A DNA stretch of 64,000 nucleotides from Vairimorpha necatrix (taxonomy: Eukaryota). Below the pieces are notes generated by a model. It saw nothing but the letters and a program-made list of their open reading frames with translations. It searched no databases and was not told the DNA's origin. The stretch lies in NCBI GenBank assembly GCA_036630325.1, contig CP142734.1, positions 1 to 64,000 on the forward strand, read 5' to 3'. Made by a program: the position numbers and the translations under genes. Shown here piece after piece: positions 1-62,788 of this stretch. Numbering within the stretch: position 1 is the stretch's first letter; each line of letters begins with the position of its first letter.

Positions 1-2572
1 ACCTACCTACCTACCTACCTACCTACCTACCTAACCTACCTACCTACCTACCTAACCTACCTAACCTACCTACCTAACCTAACCTACCTACCTACCTAAC
101 CTACCTAACCTACCTAACCTACCTACCTACCTACCTAACCTAACCTAACCTACCTACCTACCTACCTACCTAACCTACCTAACCTAACCTAACCTACCTA
201 ACCTACCTAACCTACCTACCTAACCTACCTAACCTACCTAACCTAACCTACCTAACCTACCTAACCTACCTAACCTAACCTACCTAACCTAACCTACCTA
301 CCTACCTAACCTACCTAACCTACCTAACCTAACCTAACCTAACCTACCTAACCTAACCTACCTACCTAACCTACCTAACCTACCTAACCTACCTACCTAA
401 CCTACCTAACCTAACCTACCTAACCTAACCTACCTAACCTACCTACCTAACCTACCTACCTAACCTACCTAACCTACCTACCTACCTACCTACCTACCTA
501 ACCTAACCTACCTAACCTAACCTACCTAACCTAACCTAACCTACCTAACCTAACCTACCTACCTACCTACCTAACCTACCTAACCTACCTAACCTACCTA
601 ACCTAACCTAACCTACCTACCACCTACCTACCTAACCTACCTAACCTACCTACCTACCTAACCTACCTACCTAACCTACCTAACCTACCTACCTAACCTA
701 CCTAACCTACCTAACCTAACCTAACCTAACCTAACCTACCTACCTAACCTACCTAACCTACCTAACCTACCTACCTAACCTAACCTACCTAACCTAACCT
801 AACCTAACCTACCTACCTAACCTACCTACCTACCTAACCTACCTACCTAACCTAACCTAACCTAACCTACCTAACCTAACCTACCTAACCTACCTAACCT
901 AACCTAACCTACCTACCTAACCTACCTAACCTACCTACCTAACCTACCTAACCTAACCTAACCTAACCTAACCTAACCTACCTAACCTAACCTACCTAAC
1001 CTACCTAACCTAACCTACCTAACCTACCTAACCTAACCTAACCTACTACCTAACCTATAACCTACCTACCTAACCTACCTACCTACCTAACCTAACCTAC
1101 TACCTAACCTACCTAACCTACCTAACCTACCACCTACCTAACCTACTACCTACCTACCTACCTAACCTAACCTACCTACCTAACCTACCTAACCTAACCT
1201 ACCTAACCTACCTAACCTACCTAACCTACCTAACCTAACCTAACCTACCTAACCTACCTAACCTAACCACCTACCTAACCTACCTAACCTACCTAACCTA
1301 AACCCTAACCTACCTACCTACCTAACCTACCTACCTAACCTACCTAACCTACCTACCTAACCTAACCTAACCTACTAACCTACCTAAACCTACCTAACCT
1401 ACCTACCTAACCTACCTACCTACCTACCTAACCTACCTACCTAACCTACCTAACCTACTAACCTAAACCTACTAACCTACCCTACCTACCTACCTACCTA
1501 ACCTAACCTACCTAACCTACCTAACTACCTACCTAACCTAAACACCTACCTAACCTAACCTAACCTAACCTACCTACCTAACCTACCTAACCTACCTACC
1601 TAACCTACCTACCTAAACCTAACCTCTAACCTACCTAACCTACCTACCTACCATACCTACCTAACCTACTACCTAACCTAACCTAACCTAACCTACCTAA
1701 ACCTAAACCTACCTAACCTACTAACTAACCTACCTAACCTACCTACCTACCTAACCTACCTACCTAACCTAACCTACTACCTAACCTAACCTAACCTACT
1801 AACCTACTACCTACCCTACCTACCCTACCTACCCTACCTAACCACCTAACCTACCTACCCTACCTACCTACCTACCCCACCCTACCCTACCTACCTACCC
1901 TACCTAACCTAACCTAAACCACCACCACCTACCTACCTACCCTACCTAACCACCACCTAACCCTACCTAACCCTACCTAACCTACCCACCTACCCTACCC
2001 TACCTACCACCCTACCTAACCTACCTACCTAACCTAACCTAACCTACCTACCCTACCCTACCTAACCTACCTACCTACCCTACCTAACCTACCTACCCTA
2101 CCTACCTAACCCTACCTAACCCTACCTACCCTACCTAACCTAACCTAACCTACCTAACCTAACCTAACCTAACCTACCTACCTAACCTACCTAACCTAAC
2201 CTAACCTAACCTACCCTACCTAACCTACCTAACCACCTACCTAACCTAACCACCTACCTACCTAACCTACCTACCTACCTACCTAACCTACCTAACCTAA
2301 CCTACCTAACCACCTACCTAACCTAACCACCTACCTACCTAACCTACCTACCTACCTACCTAACCTACCTAACCTAACCTACCTAACCTACCTACCTAAC
2401 CTACCTACCTAACCTACCTACCTAACCTACCTACCCCACCCTACCTACCTAACCACCTACCTAACCTACCTACCTAACCTACCTACCCCACCCTACCTAC
2501 CTAACCACCTACCTACCCTAACCACCACACCCCCCACCCACCTACCTACCTAACCTACCTAACCTACCTAAC
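1..2572 (-). repeat. Telomeric array of mixed TAGG/TTAGG units (CCTA/CCTAA on the + strand)
   Basis: The C-rich strand runs from base 1 as irregular CCTA and CCTAA units. Variant units (CCCTA, CCA, CTA, CCTAAA) accumulate after ~1040. Abrupt junction at ...cctaa|cacgtcagc. Confidence 0.97.
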
Positions 2573-2799
2573 ACGTCAGCTTTTAGCCCTCAAACCTTCC
2601 TGAATCTTTTTTTTAAAAAAAAAATTCAGTTACATCAATATGTAACTAAAATAAATAAAAAATGAAAATTTTTAGATAAATTTTAACTAAATATCTATTA
2701 ATTCAAGTATTTTTTTTTCAGATTAATGATTATATGTTATACATTTATTTAATAGGAAAGTTCAACCCTAACATCCCCCTCCAAACGGGTAGTTCTACG

Positions 2800-5150
2800 T
2801 TACAAGCTTCTAATTTATCATTTTTATAATCTTTTAGGTCATAATGTCGTTTCTTAAGGTATTTTCAGCTATCAGTCCTTACAATATAAAAATCATTCTC
2901 ACACTTTCCCATCATTTTACCAACACTTGTAAAACTTCCTTTCATACATTTCATCTGTTTACCCAAGTTTTTTATCTTGCGATTCTCACAGCCTGATCTA
3001 CTTCAAATTTTATCTCTTTCCTTTGTTTAAAATTACTTGCATACACACCCTTTTTAACGTTTTCAATAAAGACTTCTTTTCCTTGTTCTTTACATGCTTC
3101 CATTGGTGTACATTTTATCGCTGTGTGTAAAATGTTATAATAGGTTCTTAGCTTGTTCTAGTTTTTACTCTGGGTTTCCTTCTTTTTATTTAATCAATGA
3201 TTCCCTTATTGTTCAAATACATCGTTCAATTTTCCATTGCTCTTATGAGCTTCTAAACCTACTTTCCATTGCATAATTCCGTTTTCTTTACACCAAGTTA
3301 CAAACTTCTCACTGAGAAATTTCTTACCGTTATCCGAAATATTCATCTGGGCATCCATCTTCATTTATCAAATATCCTAAAATTTTCGTATTAACATCAC
3401 TTCCTCTATTTTCCATTTTTGCGCCCTATACTTTTCTTCTAAGTAGTCAATCCCTAATAGCAGGTATTTTTTGTTTTCCTCGATAACAATTACGTGTAAA
3501 GCTACTTTTTCTAATTTCTTAAATATAGTTACAAAATTGCAACCTCCAGTCGTTTTTCTGTTATTAATGCACTATATTCCACAATTTTTTAGCGTTGTGG
3601 ATATCTGGTCAAATAGCTGGTCAGTACAATCTTTGTTTTTCCTTATAATAAGGTCTTTTTCACTTCACGATGATTTAATTCCTCATGAACTCTGCGAATT
3701 TCTGTTCTCATTTATTTTTTTGTGTTGTATTTAATAATTTCTATTGTTGAGAACTTCCAATAGTTTTTGCCTTCTCTTTTAACCATGCGCTTTTTTTCTT
3801 TCCATTTAATTTGTTTTTGGTGCGTTTATCTCTTTCGCCTTTTCAATTACTTCGTTATTTTTAAATTGTCTACTAAGAGCATCCACATACATCATCAATT
3901 CTGTTTTTACATATTCAATAGTAAAATCGAACTCTTGTATATATTCTATCCATCTCTTAATTATGTAATTATTAAAAAACGGTTTGTTTCTAATCTCGGC
4001 CATTCCTTTATGATTTGTCATTTATTGAAATTTTCTTCCCCCAAATCTGACTCGAATTTCTTTATTTCAAATAACACTGCCAACATCTCTTTTTCACTAA
4101 TCGTATACTTTTTAGCTGTTGGTGTTAGCATTTTTGATGCCCATTGTATCAGAATCTACCTATCTTCCTTGTCTTCTTGCAGAAGTATAACTCCAATTCC
4201 CTTATCGCATGCACACGTTCTTACTCTAAATATTTTTTTATCTATCTTCTATTTTTAATTTTTTCACATCCTTTAAATCCTCTTTGATATCCATAAAAGC
4301 TCTTTCCATATCTTGGGACCATTTTCATTTACTATCTTTTTTTAGTGCTCTTGTAAGAAGCGCTGACCGATAAGCATAATGATGAATAAAATCTCTTAAC
4401 CGGCCTGCCCGCTCCTCAACTCTTCTAAGATCTTTTATGTTGTTAGGCTTTCTGTATTCTAATGTCTACTCCTATATATTTTTTCGGTTTAATGTCTTCT
4501 CAGTTAATTGTTACTCCAAGTAGTTTTTCTTCTCCTAATTTATATTGTATCTTTCTTGAGTTTACTTTTAATCCACATTCATTAAATTTTCGAATTACTT
4601 GTTTTAAAAAATTTTCTTGTATATTACTATCTCATGCATAAATAATAAAATCCATGTACACCTCAACACTCTTGCCTCTAAACTTATCTAAAACTCCGTT
4701 CATCACTCTTTGCATAATATGGGGAGCATTTTTTAATCCCTTTACCATGCCATTCCATTCGTAAACTCTACCATTTATCTTAAAAGCTGTCTTATGTTTG
4801 TAAGCTCTCTCAATTTCTATATGATAGAATCTTTCCTTTAGGTCTATAACCATAAATACTTTAGAACCTTGCGTTGCTTTAATATGTCTCTAATCAATGG
4901 CAAATCATACGGATCTTTTTATTCCAGTTCATTATAAGCCATCAAATTGCTTCTCAATTGTACTTTACCATTTGGTTTTTCTATGGGCTTTATTAGGCTT
5001 TTCCATTTGCTCTTTGTCTTTCTGATAATACCTCTACTTTCTAATAAATTAATATACTTTTCTGCCTTTTCTCGGAGTTTATAAGGAATATTTTGTTTCT
5101 TTTGCACTACTTTTACTCATTGTTTTGTTTTAAAAGAACATTTTATCCCT
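2800..5150 (-). pseudogene. pol remnant (RT, RNase H, integrase), frameshifted
   Basis: IPYKLRE..LLESRGIIRKTKSKWKS; IDLKERFYHI..KTAF..YEWNGMVKGLKNAP..VYMD (RT); KYTISEKEMLAV and RWIEYIQEFDFTIEY..DALSR (RNase H); YLLLGIDY, SDNGKKF, HKSNGKIER (integrase). Confidence 0.9.
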
Positions 5151-5399
5151 GTTAAGTATTTTCTTTTCCCTCTGTCTTTTCACAATACCTCGAAAATTTT
5201 CCTTCTAATTCTTCATATTTATTAATATTTTTTCTTCTTTTATCTTGGTTTGTATTTTTTACATAAAAACTGTTTCTTGAGTTCTCTCTTTTTACCTCCA
5301 CTGGTAGTCTCAATTTAAAATCATTTCATTTTTAATATTTTCATTTTACTTTTCCACAAATGCCAAAATATTTAACACTTTTATTTTCATTATTCTCTT

Positions 5400-5867
5400 C
5401 CTGTCTTCCTTTACGCTCCATACAACCTCTAGCTATATGTATAATTCTCCCACATATAAACCAATGTTTTTCTTCTCGTCTTTGATATTGAAAGTATCTT
5501 CCTGACACTGCTACAGTCCTAGTCAGTTATCCTTTCATCTTCTTTTTAATTTTTCCTTCATACCCTCTACCATATCTTCTAGTTCTCTACTCCTTATTTT
5601 TTCCTTGTTCTTATTCTCTTCCTCTTCAATAACTAATTTATCAATTTCATCAATAATATTATTCCAATTAATCATAATGATTAAATTTTTATCAATAATA
5701 AAATCCTGAAGCTCAGAATTTACTTGTTTTATCGACTGCTTCGTTGTCTCATCTTTTTCTTTCTGCATTCTGATGATTGCTTCTACTCTCTGAGTTTCTT
5801 TTAGTAATTTTATCTTCTCTTAAACACAGGTCTCACTTGTTACCCTTTCGTCTTTTGTGTTTGCCAT
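5400..5867 (-). pseudogene. gag remnant with decayed CCHC zinc knuckle
   Basis: ATG overlaps the LTR end (MANTKDER...), then a charged helical ORF at 5535-5768 and WFICGRIIHIARGC (decayed Cx2Cx4Hx4C) at ~5420-5462. Confidence 0.7.
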
Positions 5868-8800
5868 GTTATACATTTATTTAATAAAAGGTTCAACTTT
5901 AACATTATAATTAAAACACAAAGTATTTTTGGTGTAATTTTGCGAATAAATTTATGTAATAATATATTGTAAAAGTATGAAATTACTTCTTTAATTTGTA
6001 ATATATTTCATTGTAAAAAAAAGTCATTTTTGTGTTTTAACATATTTCTTACTGGAAATATTCGTATTATACTAAAAAAAAATATTTTAGGGAATTATAC
6101 AAATAACTTAAATCTCGAATGCTGTATTAACGCATATATACAGACACAAAAGCTTATACTCTTTAGGAAAGCTTATGATAATCACTTTGAATAAAAAAAT
6201 TTGATCATTATTGATAGAAAGTAAAAGGACGTAACAATTTGTTAACATTAAGGAAAGATTCCAGTGTTTGTTTGAAAATACAATACTTATAACTAATTAC
6301 ATTTGTATATTTCAGTATAAAATTATGTTATATTAAAATAGATCAATAGAAGTACTTAAGATTTATCAGATTAATATGATTTAATTAATTTTTATAAAAT
6401 AAAATATTTTCGCAAAAATTTGTTCTTTTGAATTTTTTATGAATATTTATATCTACTTGGCTGCTGCATAGGATGAGGCTTCTTCTAATGTACAATTCTA
6501 TTTATCTATGTATTTGAACTGTCCAAAAAGTCTTTTAATATTACAAATGTTATTGTGTTTATTATTTATGTTCTCTTTGGGATTAATTTTTTTATGGTAG
6601 AAAATATAATATTTTAAAAAAAAGAGGGAGTGAAGTTATTGGATAATTGAAAAATACATCCTATAAAAAATATATTTGATATGTGATCATAATGCCCAGG
6701 ATATGTTTTGTTTGTACTTATAAATTTTCTTTTATAACCGTAAGATTTACTTCATGCTTGATCTTCATATAATTTCAATTATGAAGAGAACTAGTTTGAT
6801 ATATTTTATAACCAGTTAAAATTGTTAAATTTTTGCGTAAAAAATTGCGAATAGTTTAAAAGTAACCTATTATTATCTATAAAAATGTTTTACATAATGT
6901 GTTATGTTAAAATGTTATTTTTTATGAATAAAAGTATTCATGTATTATTAAAAAATTTTAATTTTTTTATTAAATCATTAGATTGATTTCATTCTTTAAA
7001 AATCAAAATGTTTATTCCAAAAAAATTCATAAAGATTTTTTTGTTTTCATATTTGGAATTTAATTTATCAATATATTATTATATTTTTTTAATCAATTAA
7101 TATTTAAATTAAATTAAATTTTATAATTATTAGAATTCGTCTACTGCATCTATATTTATAATGTAATCGGGGTAATGCATTAAAATATTTTCTGTCATTT
7201 TTAAAGATAAGATTTGTTTTTTAATTTATATGTTCTTACATTAAATTTTTCTTAAATTTATATAAATATCTATTAATTAGTTGCATTGGGGTTTGTTTAT
7301 ACTTTTTATTAACCCTTCAAGCTCTTATTGATTTATATTTTTTTAATTCTTCGGTTAGTGTAAAATATTTGTTAATAAATTTACCAATTCTGTATTTGTT
7401 TTGTTTTAATTTTATCATAATTATAGTATTAATAATAAATACGTGGAATATATGATGTTTACTAGAAAAATTCAAATGAAGAAATACGAAATTTATTTCC
7501 AGCCTACTTTTGTGTATAAATTTACAATTTGTATAAATGTTGATTATCTTATCATTTGAAATGTATTTAATATGTTTTCTGACCATTATTAGATTTATTT
7601 CTTAATTATTTATCATTATTTTCATTGAAATAATTTTTTGTTTTGATATTTTATAATTTTTTTACAGTCTATAACCAAAAATTTCAAAATACTGTTGTAA
7701 TAAATGATAACAGAATGAAATGTCGTTTGTTGTGTTCCTCTATATATGTTTATATTTTATTTTCGTCGTATGTCTTTATGTTTCTTTGAGACTTTAAATT
7801 TTTATTTATGAATTTTCTTGATATTATTTGGTTTATATAAGCTACATTTTTATAATAATTTTAAAAACTTAAGTTAAGCATAAAAAAATGAGTTTTTAGA
7901 TATAAAGAACTTTTTAATGCTTCCTTGCGATAAATAGTATTTAATGTTTTACCATAAGAATAATTTAAATCATTTTTAAAACTTTATGAAATAATGATTG
8001 TAATTTAATATTTTTAATCTACAATTTTCTAAAACCCTCCGTGATATGGTTTCTTTTGAAATACAAATATATAAAAATTTTTAATAGATTATTTTTAGTA
8101 TTTTTATAAATTTTTCGTTATTGAATCATATGTTTCTCGTGTAGGTTGTATATATCATCATGTTTAATATCTAGGTGTAATATATTGCATTTTAAATTTT
8201 CGATTGATACATTATTTTTAAAAAAAGATAAAGTCGTTATATGTTCTAAAACTATTACTTATACTAATCAGTCGTATGTGTATTATTATGAGCGAAATTT
8301 GAAAATATAAAATTATATTTAATGATCAAAAAATATTATTTTCGTTATAGTGGTTGAGACTTCGCGCTTCAAAAGTCGTAAAAATTTAATTGTATAAAAA
8401 TTTTCTTCTTTTCACTTATCTAGAATTTTTTTTAACGTTTAGTTTGAATATTTTTTATAACTATTCTAGATATTAACATTAATTTTCAAAACGAGTTTTA
8501 GTCCAATACGTTTTTTTTTAAAAAAAGTTATCCTACTACTTTAAATATATTTTTTTTTAATTATTTTTGTAATATTAACCTCAAATATCATTATTGAAAT
8601 TGCATTTCGAAATATATTAGTTTTTTCAAAGATTTTTATTGGCATTATTTTATTTTACTTGTAGGTCAATCTTTGTGTATTAAAAATTTATATTGAAGTA
8701 TAACTTTTCTTGACCTTTTCATACTTAGAATTAATCTAACGCATTTTATTGAACTATACAATATATAATATCAAAATTAAATTTCAATTTTTCTTCAAAA

Positions 8801-12207: not shown

Positions 12208-14180
12208 TTAGGTATTACCCGGGAGTTGGCCATTCCTCAGATAGCATTCTATAATGCTTCTCCCGGGTATTAAAGTTTTATTATAATGCAAGTTGTATTA
12301 TTAAATCTGCCTCCTTGGGCTTTATCTTTCCTCTTCTAAGGATGCATTGATTGATACTGCTTATTTCTAGACTCCTCTGTTCTTATTGACATATTTTGGT
12401 GGGGGTAAAAATAAAAAGAAAATATTTATAGAAAAATAAATTCTAAAAATTCATTTGGAGGGAAAATATAATAATGTGGCAAATAATACCACATACTACC
12501 TCCTGCAAAAAATCAGCAAATTAGAATACGGATTCCTCCGAAATCATCAAATAGTTCTTTTCGCCGTTTCTAAGAAATAGCTGGGTTGGATATTCTAAAC
12601 CTCGAATCAAGGTATGAGTTTAACTTATCACATTTGAGCTTCTCAGATTCGCCCTTTACTCCATATCTACATATGCTAAATTGCATCTGCTGCATTTTAT
12701 TTTTGAGGCAATGTTTTCTGAAAGTTCCAAGATTTTTTTTTTATTCTGATAACTATCATATTTAGATGTTGCCAAATCTTTTACCTGTTGATGGTTATCT
12801 TTAATTTTATCAGGAGGCTTGCTTCTTCCTTTGTTATTTATTTTAATATTTTTGAATATATATCATCTGATGGTATCGTATTCCCTGTCCTTTTCACAAA
12901 GTCAACTATATTAGTTAAGACTTTAGCTAGAAGATTGTCTATTTTTTATTCAAATTCCTTTTAATACAATTATCTATATTATTTATTCTTTCATTTATAC
13001 ATTTCTGTTTATTGATGATTTTATTTTCTTTTTGTTTCTGAATTAATAGGCAGTCGGTTTTTTTATTTTTTTATCCAATTCATCGTTAGGAATTTTTTTT
13101 ATCATTAACGATTTTCCTTCTTTTTTTATTTCTCTATCGTTGGCTTTTGGTTTTTGTAGACGACAATCTCGTGTATCATGTGATCTTGCTCGATGTATAG
13201 AGCACCACTTATCACTTTTAAAGTATCTTCCTGTTTCTTCAGGTCTTTCATAATTCTCTTTCTTAGATATAAATTGAGATAAAGTCTCCCTTCCAGTTTC
13301 ACCTGTAAAATAATCATTTCTTCCAGATCCTGTGAATATTTTAATAGCTCGTCCATTACCTTGTTTTTCATTCCTGATTTTAAAACTTCAATGGCAGTTG
13401 ATCTGCCTAATCCTTTTTCAAAAATCTGTTTCAATCTAACATCAGATTCCTTTTTCGATAGGTTTATAGATAGTCCGTATATTTTAATCATCGACTTTAT
13501 TTTCTCGAAGTAATCTGCTATACTTCTATAATTTACCTGTTTTACAGTTTCCATCTCTGTTAATAATAAAGCTACATCATTTTTTGGATATCTGAATTCT
13601 AGTAGTTCTTTTTTTTGTTTTTTAAAGCTTTTCTTATTTAGCTTATCTTTCACCTTAGAATCTTCAATCAAAGAATGGTAGATGAGTCCCATCTGCTCAT
13701 TTGTCCATTTATTGGCCGTTCCTAGCTCTTCAAACAGCTCGAGATGATTTATGGTGCAGTCACGTTTTACATTTTTCAATTTTTTCTTTAAACACTATTG
13801 TAGTTCCTTCTATGGTTTTATCAAATGTGGTATATGCTTCATCATCATTTTATTTCTCAGTATTATTACTTTTTTCTAATACTAATGAGCTCATTGAGGT
13901 ATTACCCGGGAGTTGGCCGTTCCTCAGATAGCATTCTATAATGCTTCTGACGGGTATTAAAGTTTTATTATAATTAAAGTTGTATTATTAAATCTGCCTC
14001 CTTGGGCTTTATCTTCCCTTTTCTGGGGATGCAGTGATTGATACTGCTGATTTCTAGACTCCTCTGTTCTTCTTGACATATTTTGGTGGGGGTAAAAATA
14101 AAAAGAAAATATTTATATAAAAATAAATTCTAGAAAATTCATTTGGAGGAAAATATAATAATGTGGTAAATAATACCACA
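12208..14180 (-). mobile_element. Internally deleted LTR retrotransposon with 286-bp LTRs
   Basis: Near-identical direct repeats at 12208-12493 and 13895-14180 (TGAGGTATTA...TAATACCACA; the left copy starts TTAGG), TSD AATTC on both sides, gag-like ORF inside, no recognisable pol. Confidence 0.93.
13126..13779 (-). pseudogene. Gag (capsid-like) ORF remnant
   Basis: Retrotransposon gag-like pattern (ANKWTNEQ..; VKQVNYRSIADYFEKIK; IFEKGLG), located between two LTRs. Confidence 0.75.
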
Positions 14181-15560: not shown

Positions 15561-15967
15561 TTTCAAATATATATATATATATCTTTTTATTATACTCTAT
15601 AAGTTATCTTATTTAAATTTTTAATATATCATTTTTGTTTAATCATAATATATTTAAAATATTTTTTTTAAATATTTTCCTTAAATGAAGATAATTTCAG
15701 ATCCCAAAATATATAAATTAAATATTACAAAAAGATTAGGTTCATTAAATATAATAGACAAGATTAATATGAACCTTACATCGATAAAAAATACTAGAAT
15801 TCTACAAGGCTTGATCTGATGATTTATCCTTCATTTAGTATTTATTGTAATATAATCCGTTGTTTTAATTATCTTAATAAAAAAAAATCAAAATTCATTA
15901 CCGACAACCAAATTACTACTCACCTTCTTTTACATGGCCAACATGTTTTTTCTAAATATATTTTTTT

Positions 15968-17113
15968 GGTACATGACCGTTTGGAACCCGCTTTGGGAAA
16001 ATGAACCCGCATTGAAAAATTAAAGGACCCCCCCCTTTCAAAAAATGGCAAGATTGACAAAAACAAATTTTGTTATAGAAGATGAGCTTTTAAGTGATGA
16101 AATGTTTTTAAACATGGAAATAAATGAAAATTTTATTTTGGAAACATTTTATGATGCTGAGACAGCGTGTATGTTTCTGGCACGCAGTTCATTAATACAA
16201 AACAACTTTTTTTGTACTGTATGCAGCTCTGAAAGGCCAATGAAATTGATTAGAAGAATAAGATTATTAGACAAATATGTTTGGAATTCACGAAACCTTG
16301 TACTACTTCTAAATCTGTCAGAAAAGACTCTATTTTTGAAAATACCAAATTAAGTTTTTATAAAATTATAAGAATGATATATAAGTATATCAAAAGAGTT
16401 TCCTTTCTCGATATAGCAAATGATCTTGAGCTAGACAGAAAAACCGTAAGTACATATGGTATGCTCTGCAGAGATCGCATAATCGAGGAAGTGACCAATA
16501 ATAGCCAGAGGTTAGGAGGTCGTGATGAGTTAGGCATTCCTAAAGTAGTGGAGATCGACGAGAGTCTATTCTTTCGTGCCAAATATAATCGTGGCAATCA
16601 TACCACAGGTCAGTGGTATGTAGGAGGAGTTGAAAGAGGTTCTAGAAAGGCCTTTCTCGTCCCTGTAGCTAGTAGAAATATTGCTACGCTTCTTAAGTTA
16701 ATACAAGATAATGTATTGCCTGGTTATATTGTGATCACTGATCAATGGAGAGCATATGGTGCTGCATTTAGACAAATCACAGGGATGGAGCATAGGACTG
16801 TCAATCACTCTATCAATTTTGTAAATCCTAACGATCCCGAGACACTTACTCAACAAATTGAAGGATTTTGGTCTCTTTCGAAGAGAGATATTCGGTCTAT
16901 ACATGGAATAAACCAGGACGAGCACTATGAGTATCTTTTACAGTTTCTATGGTCTTATCAAATAGCAAAAAACCAAAGAATTAATCGACTTCTTTCATTA
17001 TTCAAAATAAATCGTTAAGTCTCTTTTTTTATAATTTTTTTTATTTTTCCCTTTTTTTGAATTTTTCAATGCGGGTTCATTTTCCCAAAGCGGGTGACAA
17101 ACGGTCATGTACC
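15968..17113 (+). mobile_element. Full-length Merlin (IS1016-like) DNA transposon
   Basis: ~55-bp TIRs GGTACATGACCGTTTG..ACCCGCTTTGGGAAAATGAACCCGCATTGAAAAATT, 8-bp TSD ATTTTTTT, DDE transposase. Confidence 0.96.
16045..17018 (+). CDS. Merlin DDE transposase split by one frameshift near 16285
   Basis: N-terminal CTVC zinc motif (16045-16353) joins a frame with VVEIDES..KYNRG, GGVERGS, ITDQWRAY, VNHSINFV, TQQIEGFWS. A C-run precedes the ATG. Confidence 0.9.
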
Positions 17114-17141
17114 ATTTTTTTATACTAAATCTAGATTTTTA

Positions 17142-36907: not shown

Positions 36908-37194
36908 TGAGGTATTACCCGGGAGTTAGCCGTTCCTCAGATAGCATTCTATGATGCTTCTCCCGGGTATTAAAGTTTGGTTATAATTAATGTTGTATTT
37001 ATTTAATCTGCCTCCTTGATCATTGTCTTCCCTCTTCTGGGGATGCAGTGATTGATACTGCTGTTCTCTAGACTCCTCTGTTCTTCTCGACATATTTTTT
37101 GTGTGTTAAAAATAAAAAGAAAATATTTTTAAAAAATAAATTCTAGAAAATTCATTTGGAGGGAAAATATAATAATGTGGTAAATAATACCACA
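36908..37194 (-). mobile_element. Solo LTR of the 12208-14180 family
   Basis: TGAGGTATTA...TAATACCACA, 287 bp, TSD AGTAG on both sides. Confidence 0.95.
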
Positions 37195-43050: not shown

Positions 43051-45419
43051 TGTCACAGTTCGAAACGAACGCCCATTTTGAGCGGACGCCAGGGGGTTTA
43101 AAATTAAATAATCTCTTTAGTGAGGGGCGAACAAGAAAAAAAACAAATAAATGTTCGTCTTCAATGATTGCCCAAATTTTGTCTCGATTTTTTGAGGGGT
43201 AAATTTTTGCTATTTTTTTATAATAATGTAGGAATAATGAAAAAAGGAGAAAAATAAAATAAACAAAATTTTTAGTACTTATTCGTTACTAGCAACGTTA
43301 GACCTCTAGTACTTATTTCTTCTATTATAATGACATTATTATTTTTTCTGCATAATTTTACTTTATTAAATTGTATTATGTCTGTTTAAAATTAGACTTC
43401 TGCATCTAAATGTTCATAAAGAGAATGTCTTCTGGTATTGATGTTGTTGTAAAATAAGGTATTTTAAATTTTAGCTACCATTTTTGTTCTAGGAAATCAT
43501 TTCTTTACATACTTCAAGGTGTCATTCTATCTGCAGCAGTTTGTGTATGAATTCTAGCTGCATCATAAATAAATTTCATTTAAAAAGGTTTGTGTTATTC
43601 AGAGCATATAATTATTCTATTTCCAGTTTATAAAAAATCTAGAACATCTGATAAACTTTCTTCTGCTCGTTCTTCGTCCCAAATTCTTGTTCGTGATTTT
43701 CGATATAAATCGAATCAAGATATCTTGTAAAACTAGACTCGTCTGTAATGTTCTATATGTGTCTACTAAACATTATAAATAATGTAAGTGTCGCGTGGTG
43801 GAGTGTTGTAAATATTTATATGATCAGGTAACTAAATATCGTACCTTGGTTCGTTGAATCAAATTATTTCTGTCCCAAAAGTAGATCTATTCTATTTCAA
43901 TATTTTTTGATTGCATCGTTTTATCTGTCCTTGTATTCATGGACATCTAGATTTTCTCCCTCATGTGTCTTATTTTATATTTCTGTCGTAAATCGAAGAG
44001 AATTTGATTTACAATTCTCTGCCTTTATCAGTATGAAGTATAAAACAAGAACTAAATGTTCAAAAAATGTTTCGAAGGCATTTCTCCACTGTAATACCTG
44101 TTTTGTCAAGCAGTGACAGCGTCTAACAGTATTTGGTCTAGAATCAATATTCTATTGCCATTTATATCTTTCTTTGAGTTCGTGATACAGCCAAAGATCA
44201 ATCAAGTCTGCAACATATCTTTCCCTTGGGTATTTCTCCTACAATTGGTCTGATAACAAACTGTTTTTAGATTTCCTTTTGATTTACATATATCACAGCT
44301 GTTAAAAACTTTTAGAATATCTTTTTGGGTTGCGTCGTAGACTTTTGTTTGCAATGATGTAAACAATCTGTTCCATCCCACATGCCCGTTTGAGACGTAG
44401 ATCTATTTTAAAGCGTTACTCATTGGTTGTAAGAAAGTTTACGATCTATATAGACATACTTTAAATCTCACTGTAAGCTCCGTGATACCATTAATTACAT
44501 CCATGAAAAGGAACATTTTTTTTACTTTCTTCTAAAAGCATCTCTTTCACGTTTCTTCCCTTTCTTTTGTAACAGAACCAGTCTGTAAAAAGACAGTAAT
44601 TTTTTGTCTTTCATTGTTATTTAATTTTAGATACAAGGCCGAGAGGAACCCGCTTTGAAATTTTCAAGGACCCCCCTTTCAAAAAATTGCAAAATTGACA
44701 AAACAATGTTTGTGAGGCTGATGAACTTTTTAGTGATAAAATAAATAATCATGAAAACCAAACATAAAGTATTTTGGAAACATTTGATGCTGAATCGGCG
44801 TGCGCCTTGCTCGTTTCTGTAACTAGTAGAAATACTGCTATTTCTTTGAGGTACTACAAGATACTGTAAAACCTGTTTCTATTTTGTTTTCTAATCAATA
44901 GTAGGATATGAGGTCACATTAAACAAGCAAAGGGGGGAGAGCAATAGTACAATGAATCACTTTATCAATTCTGTAACCCCTAGCGATTCTACGACTTAAT
45001 ACCAAGTAATTAAGTTGGTTTGGGCTTATTTCTGTAATGAATGTTCGATCTATACATAGAATAATTTAGGATGAACACTGTGAGCACCTTTTACAGTTCC
45101 TCTTGGCTTTCTAAATTTATAAAAAACAATAGATAAATCGTCCTCTTCCATATTTAAAATAAATCGTTAAGTCTTTTTTTTTATATTTTTTCTTATTTTT
45201 TTGAATTTTTCAAAGCGGGTTCCAAACGGTCATGTACCAAATTTTATTTCATGCGCTTAAATTGATGAATTTTTATTACAAAGAAATGCCAACGTTTTTT
45301 TTTGGTTTTTACCCTTCACAAGTAATCATTCTCCCTATCGTACGCTCAGAACGGAATTTTTTTTTCTTAACTTTTATCCAACCCGGGGCTTTTCCCTGAC
45401 GTTCGTACTAACGATGTCA
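43051..45419 (-). mobile_element. Decayed Ginger-like (rve integrase) element with a nested Merlin copy
   Basis: Minus strand at ~43900-44240: PRERYVADLIDL..Y....RYKW, ILHTDKGRE, SRCP*IQGQIKRCNQ. Degenerate inverted ends TGTCACAGTTCGAAACGAACG / CGTTCGTACTAACGATGTCA. No RT seen. Ends uncertain. Confidence 0.65.
44646..45238 (+). mobile_element. Internally deleted, decayed Merlin copy (family of 15968)
   Basis: GAACCCGCTTTGAAA..GGACCCCCCTTTCAAAAA 5' end, decayed transposase pieces, right TIR GCGGGTTCCAAACGGTCATGTACC. Confidence 0.88.
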
Positions 45420-50416: not shown

Positions 50417-51638
50417 TTATTCCTTTCTATATATTTGATCTATTAATTCATGGATTTTTATGCATTCATTTGTCCTCAAAGATACTCTATGTAATTTTCT
50501 TAATAATGAATTTATAATTGTAAGTACTTCTAAATGTTTTGTAATATCCTCATATTTACTATGTTTCAATTCTTCTTCCACGTCTTGAAAAGTTTTTATT
50601 ATTGGTATATAATTAAATAATAACAATACCTCTTTATTATAATTATTTGTTGAAATTATGTTGTATGCTGAGTATATCTTATTACTGCCATATTTTCTCC
50701 TCAAATCAAAAAGTGTCATAAAATCTTAAATATACTTACAACTTGTGTAATTAAATTATAAGTTTCTTTTATATAAACATAAATTTTCTATTTTTTCAAA
50801 AGTTTTGACGAATTCTTTTTTAGTTTGAAGTTTTATATATTGTGAAAAAATATAAATCTTTTTATTGCACTCTTTAAGGATTTCGTTTGATTCTTCGTCT
50901 AAATTTATAAAGTACTTAATTTTTTTCATCCTATTTATTCTGAATTTAAACTCATTCATACTTTTTTGACAATTAGTCAAGAGTTTGGAGGAATTATAAA
51001 AAGGAAGTGTGGTGTTTCCACCAGGGAGATGGCCATAATGTAAATAGCATTCAAGAATGCTTCTCCCTGCACCTAAATTAGTTTTATTTAAATTATGTTT
51101 ATTAACTTGCCCCTGTGGGCTTTCATAGTTCCTCATGTGAGGGGGTAGGGTGTAAGATACCCTCCCGTTATCGTTGTAGACTCTCTGTTCTCTTCTCATC
51201 TAAAAATCGATGGGTCAAAATAAAAGAAAATATTTATAGCAAAATATTTTCTAGAAAATTCACTTGGAGGGAAAATGAAATAAAAATAAGTAATGTGGTA
51301 AATAATACCACAGGAAGTTTCTTGTTTTGATTTACGAAGTTATTTTCTAAAATAGCATTTTCAAGTTTATCCAAGGCCTTCTGCGCATCTAATTCTATTG
51401 AGTCAATTTCAATAAACTTATTAAAATCTTTATCATTGATATACATTTCCATTTCTTGTTTTAAGTTATAGGTTTCAATATCCTCAAATATATTTTTATT
51501 GATTACATTATAAACATCTTCTTCGTAACTCTCAGCTTTCCCAAAATTTTCAGTTATATCTCTTTGACAATTAAGAGTTTCTATACATTTATTAATATTT
51601 AATGAGGAACAAAAAATAATTGTAAAAATTAAAAACAT
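50417..51638 (-). pseudogene. Secreted-type hypothetical gene interrupted by a solo LTR
   Basis: CCCTTA-ATG start (MFLIFTIIFCSS). Removing 51008-51312 plus one TSD restores NKKLP|FYNSSK in frame. A further break lies near 50720-50760, so ORF 50417-50719 may be its C-terminus. Confidence 0.75.
51008..51312 (-). mobile_element. Solo LTR of a diverged subfamily of the 286-bp LTR
   Basis: TGTGGTG...TAATGTGGTAAATAATACCACA, 305 bp, TSD GGAAG. Shares CTAGAAAATTCA.TTGGAGGGAAAAT with the other LTRs. Confidence 0.92.
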
Positions 51639-62715: not shown

Positions 62716-62788
62716 GCTGCCCTTAGCCCAGTGGTAGAAGGCAATGCTTCCATTGAGCAACGGCTGGGTTCGATTCCCAGGGGCACCA
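62716..62788 (+). tRNA. tRNA-like sequence, isotype uncertain (pseudogene or element-borne)
   Basis: A box TAGCCCAGTGG, perfect T arm CTGGG-TTCGATT-CCCAG, acceptor GCTGCCC/GGGCACC with one mismatch, non-canonical anticodon arm TGCT-TCCATTG-AGCA. Confidence 0.65.

Follow-up and report, generated by a model that had tools for sequence, protein, structure and literature searches.

Terminal repeats and coding content of the element

We analysed the first 64,000 nucleotides of contig CP142734.1 of Vairimorpha necatrix (GenBank assembly GCA_036630325.1), hereafter the window, in which a Ty3/gypsy-like long terminal repeat (LTR) retrotransposon of 3170 bp occupies positions 2735-5904, beginning 162 bp to the inside of a telomere-like array. 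All coordinates refer to the + strand of the window, and the element itself reads on the minus strand (Table 1). On the + strand the order is TTATA, a 39-bp repeat, 3093 bp of decayed coding DNA, a 38-bp repeat and TTATA again. The initial annotation had described the element by its TG..CA repeats of 38-39 bp, a perfect TTATA target-site duplication (TSD), a polypurine tract (PPT) and a TGG at the position of the primer binding site (PBS), and all of these were found in place. The two repeats are identical at 34 of 39 aligned positions, the differences being four transitions and one indel, and the flanks beyond them are unrelated on either side. In the orientation of the element, the 3' LTR contains the end of the pol frame, a TAA and then an ATG, with an AATAAA located 9 nt before the LTR end.

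Table 1. Features of the element and of the adjoining contig end (coordinates of the + strand of the window)
Feature	Position	Strand	Basis or remark
Telomere-like array of mixed CCTA/CCTAA units	1..2572	.	G-free, GC skew -1.0
TSD TTATA, telomere-side copy	2730..2734	.	Read from sequence
3' LTR, 39 bp, TG..CA	2735..2773	-	Alignment with 5' LTR
Decayed single gag-pol frame (gag CCHC, reverse transcriptase, RNase H, integrase; no protease)	2766..5867	-	tblastn, colinear with 911-1043-aa relatives
PPT GGAGGGGGA, abuts 3' LTR	2774..2782	-	Same position purine-rich in 8 relatives
Block GAACTACCCGTTT upstream of PPT	2783..2795	-	Nucleotide-level conservation in short-LTR clade (window, L001, L005, L023, L033)
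Integrase region	2975..4039	-	tblastn to P0005 residues 635-992
Ty3/gypsy-type RNase H domain	4027..4239	-	Pfam RT_RNaseH, E=3.4e-14
Reverse transcriptase domain	4506..4898	-	Pfam RVT_1, E=2e-21
gag CCHC zinc knuckle remnant FICGRIIHIARGC	5422..5460	-	CCHC also in relatives
PBS-position sequence TGGCAAACAC, abuts 5' LTR, also codes (M)ANT	5857..5866	-	N-termini MANT(K/R) in P0001, P0002, P0005, P0007
Junction ATG (last LTR A plus TG of TGG)	5865..5867	-	Read from sequence
5' LTR, 38 bp, TG..CA, ends ...TAACA	5867..5904	-	Alignment with 3' LTR
In-frame ATG inside 5' LTR (MYN/MANT), directly after in-frame TAA	5874..5876	-	~9-10 nt upstream of the junction ATG
AATAAA within 5' LTR, part of AATAAAT block	5876..5881	-	LTR alignment
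TSD TTATA, centromere-side copy	5905..5909	.	Read from sequence

The window frames were searched against Pfam with stops read as X, which identified the reverse transcriptase (RT) and RNase H domains. There was no match to Pfam rve in this decayed copy, and since the third frame gave no Pfam family the integrase is recognised by homology only; the relatives that align colinearly to the window carry both rve and Integrase_H2C2. The order of RT, RNase H and integrase in one pol frame, together with the termini, places the element in the Ty3/gypsy group (Metaviridae). Its closest proteins are the Pol polyproteins of Nosema granulosis, 65-67% identical over the RT piece, followed by P0003 (partial, 911 aa, from a Clostridium-labelled bin) and P0005 (1043 aa, from ENA), and none of the 190 viral_contigs stretches contained a relative. 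A Nosema-like microsporidian is the probable host, as indicated by these matches, the TTAGG-type contig end and a Merlin/IS1595 transposase in the vicinity. The open reading frame (ORF) to which the initial annotation had assigned the start codon is not intact: the three frames contain 104, 71 and 79 stops, of all three kinds. Alternative genetic codes (tables 6 and 4, ciliate and TGA=W) did not restore the frame. The window copy is an old, dead pseudogene.

At a spacing of 1-10 kb, exact direct repeats of at least 20 nt are confined to four diagonals in the non-telomeric 61.4 kb; a 21-nt exact match between the LTRs is on one of these, and the other three belong to larger repeat families. A 20-mer from the LTR, searched with up to 3 mismatches, matched the window at the two LTR sites only. 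With three full-length relatives as tblastn queries, all 15 segments were located inside 2766-5867, in minus frames and colinear, and no further gag-pol copy was detected in the window. The position of the repeats around the gag-pol homology is the strongest argument against a chance origin, and the chance of the flanks matching at 5/5 positions is ~0.004, by arithmetic from the base composition.

The block immediately upstream of the PPT has the consensus GA(G/A)ACTACCCGT(C/T)T and is conserved at the nucleotide level although the proteins of the family are only ~40-60% identical; it may be a candidate cis-acting element for plus-strand priming or RNA cyclisation. With regard to an empty site, a candidate in sequencing data X1 (joint 2618 to 5913) was rejected, as there were unknown letters between the two sides and the termini were not matched. 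No pieces spanning the element were placed at 80% likeness in X1-X3, despite many contig pieces that are 80-95% alike. Three sequencing runs matched the window with small word shares (0.07-0.17), and no RNA run was among those listed.

Repeat length, start codons and protease in related elements

Short terminal repeats were also found in related elements on metagenomic contigs. In L001, the contig of P0003, the pol frame runs through GGAGGAGGGGA into a 3' LTR of 38 bp, a TGTT...TAACA block which can be aligned to the window LTR and is followed by unrelated flank. L002 has a 5' LTR of 47 bp (TGTTATAGCC...ATCACA, then TGGCAACACC), and L023, from the same bin and family, has a 3' LTR of 46 bp located after GAGGGGGGA and before unrelated flank. 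A 5' LTR of 49 bp precedes TGGCACCCGATG in L004 (minus strand), and a 3' LTR of 49 bp follows GGGCGGGGA in L005, which belongs to the same family; the + strand element of L003/L004 was rejected as a source of a 5' LTR, since it is rearranged. L012 is complete (3364 bp), with an intact 1095-aa open frame and identical LTRs of 58 bp at both ends, and P0007 (1017 aa, 3054 nt) is encoded on a contig of just 3141 nt. The proposal that the short LTRs are real termini and not truncations thus stands, as repeats of 38-49 bp at the 5' and/or 3' end are bounded in the same way (PPT/TGTT and ACA/TGG) in three related families, and together with the 58-bp pair of the intact L012 this agrees with the proposed miniaturised-LTR lineage. 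Intact relatives with LTRs of normal length, which the initial annotation had named as evidence that would speak against such a lineage, were only found at greater distance: the intact elements L020, L016 and L018 have LTRs of 75 bp (identical copies), 176 and 172 bp (164/176 identical) and ~286 bp, respectively.

In a quick IQ-TREE search with 20 rows, the window groups with L001 and N. granulosis with a support of 100, and this group joins P0005, L003/L005 and P0006 in a nine-row clade, also with a support of 100. L012 is the sister of the nine-row clade (support 100), with the 75-286-bp elements on the other side. From this nested placement it follows that LTRs are shorter the more closely an element is related to that of the window, and short LTRs as a lineage trait are supported by these comparisons.

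The initial annotation had also presented the start codon as fused to the LTR end. The junction ATG is indeed located at that site; it is unremarkable in itself, because any LTR which ends in CA and is followed by TGG will spell ATG, and a second in-frame ATG is present within the LTR. The unusual feature is that the gag frame is open from within the LTR across the primer site. In 8/8 5' ends (window, L002, L004, L012, L016, L018, L019 and L020) gag is in frame with the junction ATG, and a further in-frame ATG internal to the LTR was found in five of these eight, at -10 (window), -13, -19, -31 and -49; in those five the LTR-internal ATG appears a likelier start than the junction ATG. As the primer-site sequence is translated, the relatives have conserved N-termini: MANT(K/R), MAT, MAP, MAS and MVE. 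Database proteins start with MTYMANT, MEINVHMANT, MIRNSHMAS, MINKDMANT and MYYTHDMAS, and the layout with an LTR-internal start is found in four of the five complete database N-termini (P0001, P0005, P0006 and P0007), with P0002 starting directly at MANT. Similarly, at the other end of the element the pol frame passes the PPT and ends inside the 3' LTR in L001, L012 and L016, and 10 nt before the LTR in L020. In the window the homology to P0003 reaches position 2766, 8 nt into the 3' LTR, and the frame continues as ...GMLG... to a TAA, with the ATG directly after it.

The aspartic protease usually located between gag and RT in Ty3/gypsy elements appears to be absent from the clade closest to the window element. 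LLDTGA-type active sites are present in L012, L016, L018 and L020, 270-300 residues before YxDD, with Pfam protease matches ranging from weak to good (L020 3.5e-8, L016 7e-4, L012 0.016-0.056). There was no D[ST]G between CCHC and YxDD in P0001, P0002, P0003, P0005 and P0006, where this interval spans only 226-247 residues and is too short to accommodate a protease, and P0005 gave no protease match in Pfam at E up to 1. Ten further relatives from the exhaustive search were read for the protease motif, which is also absent in P0010, P0018, P0025, P0026 and P0067, as it is in P0007; P0013 has a DTG at residue 11 only, and P0030, P0035, P0055 and P0062 do have the motif. In the window copy, ~45 codons separate what is left of the knuckle from the RT lead-in (window 4900-5420 region). 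To judge from these motifs, the shortest LTRs and the lack of a protease coincide in the same clade.

The contigs which supplied the relatives contain other arrangements as well. At 1045-1380 of L004, the minus-strand element with the 49-bp LTR sits within the RNase H region of another copy, and the RNase H fragment of the interrupted copy is fused in frame to the 5'-truncated gag of a third copy. Two bins, labelled Clostridium sp. (G001) and Turicibacter sp. (G002), gave 44 and 15 matches to the eukaryotic gypsy polyprotein, many of these being intact frames of 1100-1300 aa on contigs of 3-4 kb, and these bins contain eukaryotic retroelement contigs that are probably microsporidian.

Signals in the repeats and alternative explanations

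AATAAAT is invariant in seven LTR sequences from five families, and the distance from AATAAA to the terminal CA is 9 nt in the window and L001, 25 nt in L012, 26 nt in L002 and 29 nt in L004/L005. CCC or GGG is located immediately before the LTR ATG in L005, L016, L020 and L023, and 10-22 nt from the candidate start in L001, L012, L018 and L019. According to excerpts of PMC2803860, 5' untranslated regions (UTRs) of Encephalitozoon cuniculi mapped by rapid amplification of cDNA ends (RACE) are <7 nt in length, a CCC-like motif is found just upstream of start codons with an AAATTT-like signal before it (likewise in N. ceranae), and polyadenylation is signalled by AAUAAA, transcription overrun being frequent. 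Based on the LTR motifs and these E. cuniculi signals, the AT-rich block is therefore proposed to have two roles. The earlier suggestion that the LTR makes use of the short promoters and UTRs of microsporidia fits with these motifs, i.e. the AT-rich block with CCC before the ATG, and AATAAA.

In the proposed mechanism, the tiny LTR would carry the integrase ends (TGTTA...ACA) as well as the final pol codons and stop. The AT-rich AATAAAT block and the CCC-like motif in the 5' LTR would form a microsporidian-type core promoter, with the RNA starting a few bases before the LTR-internal or junction ATG, and the AATAAAT block in the 3' LTR would act as poly(A) signal. R would then be very short (~10-30 nt), reaching to the terminal CA or close to it and leaving almost no U5, which would put the first gag codons inside R and have the primer site translated (TGG-CAA-AC to M-A-N-T). 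Reverse transcription would proceed as in other LTR elements, except that the homology available for strand transfer would be unusually short. Work on retroviruses indicates that strand transfer is workable on ~10-15 nt of homology.

The PBS-position sequences of interest are TGGCAAACAC, TGGCGACGGCGA and TGGTGGAGA. TGG directly follows the 5' LTR, and the 3' end of the only tRNA gene in the window (tRNA-Met, 62716-62788) matches the PBS no further than these three bases. Self-priming of the Tf1 type, in which the RNA start is complementary to the PBS, was not apparent in the window or L012, where complementarity by eye does not exceed 5-6 nt.

Taken together, we consider it probable that the locus contains an old, dead Ty3/gypsy insertion, and that its family is part of a clade whose LTRs have been reduced to 38-58 bp, an element of 3.1-3.4 kb being essentially one gag-pol frame that overlaps both LTRs. 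Several points weigh against this reading. The window copy itself is dead, the 3' boundary of the L001 LTR was set by alignment to the window LTR alone, and the LTR pairs L002/L023 and L004/L005 each come from different contigs. The tree comes from a quick search, and only 15% of its columns are filled in the row of the window copy. A start inside the LTR is not universal, as the LTR ATG of L004/L005 is out of frame with gag, and L012 and L018 are without an LTR-internal ATG. The RNA ends, the tRNA primer and transposition are predicted from sequence only, and because AATAAA is just 9 nt away from the LTR end, a transcript cleaved within the LTR would have to be cut unusually close to the signal. 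Finally, a TSD is present in only one of four complete elements, the window copy, and was not found in L012 (AATAC/GTTTG), L020 (GACTT/AGATT) and L016 (CAAAT/GTTAT). Copies without TSDs at these termini had been named beforehand as counter-evidence, which thus exists in part, in the three complete metagenomic relatives. Because a TSD is also missing from L016 with its unquestionable 176-bp LTRs, and the contigs are built from short reads of repeats with many copies, we infer that the missing TSDs reflect chimeric flanks.

That the 38- and 39-bp repeats would be chance AT-rich repeats, or stumps of longer LTRs cut after insertion, is extremely improbable. The genome has a G+C content of ~24%, and the loose 20-mer search gave at least two matches in 8/100 shuffles too and is therefore not significant alone; on the other side, the repeats exactly bracket the gag-pol homology together with PPT, TGG and a perfect 5-bp duplication, the sequence outside is unrelated on both sides, truncation would have had to affect both LTRs identically, and homologous repeats with the same boundaries exist in other families. 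It is also quite unlikely that the LTR is promoterless and consists essentially of R, providing strand-transfer homology and integrase ends, with transcription coming from a flanking host promoter, from read-through or from an internal downstream promoter. There is little room for U3, R and U5 in 38 bp, and the AATAAAT of the window family, 9 nt from the end, leaves too little space for a TATA-like element to direct a start within the LTR at the usual distances; what argues against a promoterless LTR is the presence, in several lineages, of CCC/GGG directly before the in-frame LTR ATG, resembling microsporidian start-site signals, and that a transcript started in the flank would give strong-stop DNA with a non-homologous tail. 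The frequent transcription overrun in microsporidia, as reported in excerpts of PMC2803860, would favour it.

The short-LTR, protease-less clade could further be non-autonomous, with the protease and perhaps more supplied in trans by protease-bearing relatives in the same genome, and with relaxed constraint leading to the extreme shrinkage. Both the distribution of the protease motif given above and the sharing of bins by protease-bearing and protease-less elements are in line with this; long intact RT/RNase H/integrase frames have nevertheless been kept (P0005 1043 aa, P0007 1017 aa, P0010 1090 aa), and the polyprotein could equally well remain unprocessed or be cut by a protease of the host. 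We hold non-autonomy to be rather doubtful, and it is compatible with the short-LTR reading, without conflict between the two. Returning to that preferred reading of an old insertion from a clade with shrunken LTRs, we tentatively raise, as a possibility that may well prove wrong, that the clade is still active and comprises the smallest coding LTR retrotransposons known (3.1-3.4 kb), in which an LTR of 38-58 bp would be integrase substrate, pol terminus, promoter, poly(A) signal and gag start at once, with R of ~10 nt, U5 of ~0 and an unprocessed, protease-less Gag-Pol.

Subtelomeric surroundings and comparison with known elements

The array at the contig end is an irregular mixture of 4-base and 5-base units, not pure TTAGG, and becomes more degenerate inward, with CCC-containing variants from ~1800. 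Beyond the array the window has a G+C content of ~24%. A DNA transposon of the Merlin/IS1595 type is located at 15967-17114. Its 58-nt terminal inverted repeats (15967-16024 and 17057-17114) have a complementarity of 95% and enclose a 214-aa ORF (16374-17018) containing DDE_Tnp_IS1595 (E 8.7e-13), and repeat ends related to these inverted repeats are found near 44622-44667 and 45146-45246. There is also a dispersed repeat family of ~280 bp (12210-12493, 13897-14180, 36911-37194 and 51217-51323; 92% and 68% to the reference copy), which terminates in a small hairpin-like motif, ATGTGGTAAATAATACCACA. The tRNA-Met gene at 62716-62788 was called by ARAGORN, is below the Rfam gathering score and has a C2-C71 mismatch in the acceptor stem by eye; at the gathering threshold Rfam gave no matches in the window. 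Only five ATG-started ORFs of at least 200 aa are present in the 64 kb, four of them without a Pfam family. This is a very low coding density for a microsporidian, and is consistent with a repeat-rich, gene-poor subtelomere.

Neither LTRs of <60 bp nor gypsy elements lacking a protease were found to be described for microsporidia in the literature, in a search that left the Nbr paper, Repbase and one supplement of PMC4202319 outside, and the excerpts of PMC4202319 and PMC2685015 do not mention LTR lengths or protease loss; these elements may have been described earlier, e.g. in the supplements of PMC4202319 or in Repbase. A minimum LTR length of 100 bp is routine in LTRharvest runs, as 180 papers are listed with both 'LTRharvest' and 'minlenltr 100', and at 38-39 bp the element would be missed by such size-filtered LTR finders, as had been predicted. 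Since the usual 100-bp minimum hides such elements, retrotransposon content is probably under- or mis-annotated in the genomes of microsporidia, as well as in metagenome bins with microsporidian contamination. The practical lower bound on functional LTR length would be set much lower, and the natural series of LTRs of ~286, 176, 75, 58, 49, 47 and 38 bp opens the minimal needs of U3, R and U5 to dissection. The linked loss of the protease also raises the question of how Gag-Pol functions without processing.

Among known systems, the Ty3/gypsy elements of the Nosematidae, represented by the N. granulosis 'Pol polyprotein from transposon opus / 17.6', resemble the window element in having one gag-pol frame with CCHC, RT, RNase H and integrase, and the N. 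granulosis proteins share the N-terminus MANTR with the window family. The Nbr elements of Nosema bombycis, attributed to Xu et al. 2006, are reportedly also Ty3/gypsy elements. In Ty1 of Saccharomyces cerevisiae the gag start is located inside the 5' LTR and the primer site inside the gag frame. The window element is alike in both respects, having a gag start in the LTR and a translated PBS, whereas Ty1 differs by its copia-type order, an LTR of ~330 bp with clear U3, R and U5, a protease and a frameshift between gag and pol. In retroviruses like mouse mammary tumour virus, U3 contains the poly(A) signal and R is very short. The likeness proposed for the window element is an AAUAAA upstream of the RNA start, which would enter the transcript from the 3' LTR alone, and a strand transfer that uses ~10-15 nt; the LTRs of these retroviruses, however, are hundreds of bases long, and R of the window element is predicted only.

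The shortest LTRs that we could document in print, in excerpts of PMC3281118, are the 85-bp repeats of FRetro129 (SMART), named there as the smallest LTR retrotransposon. Like the window element, SMART/FRetro129 and the plant TRIM elements have very short TG..CA terminal repeats and a 5-bp duplication, whereas elements of the FRetro129 type are non-coding, non-autonomous and 292 bp in length; the repeats in the window have about half the length of theirs, and enclose a full RT/RNase H/integrase frame.

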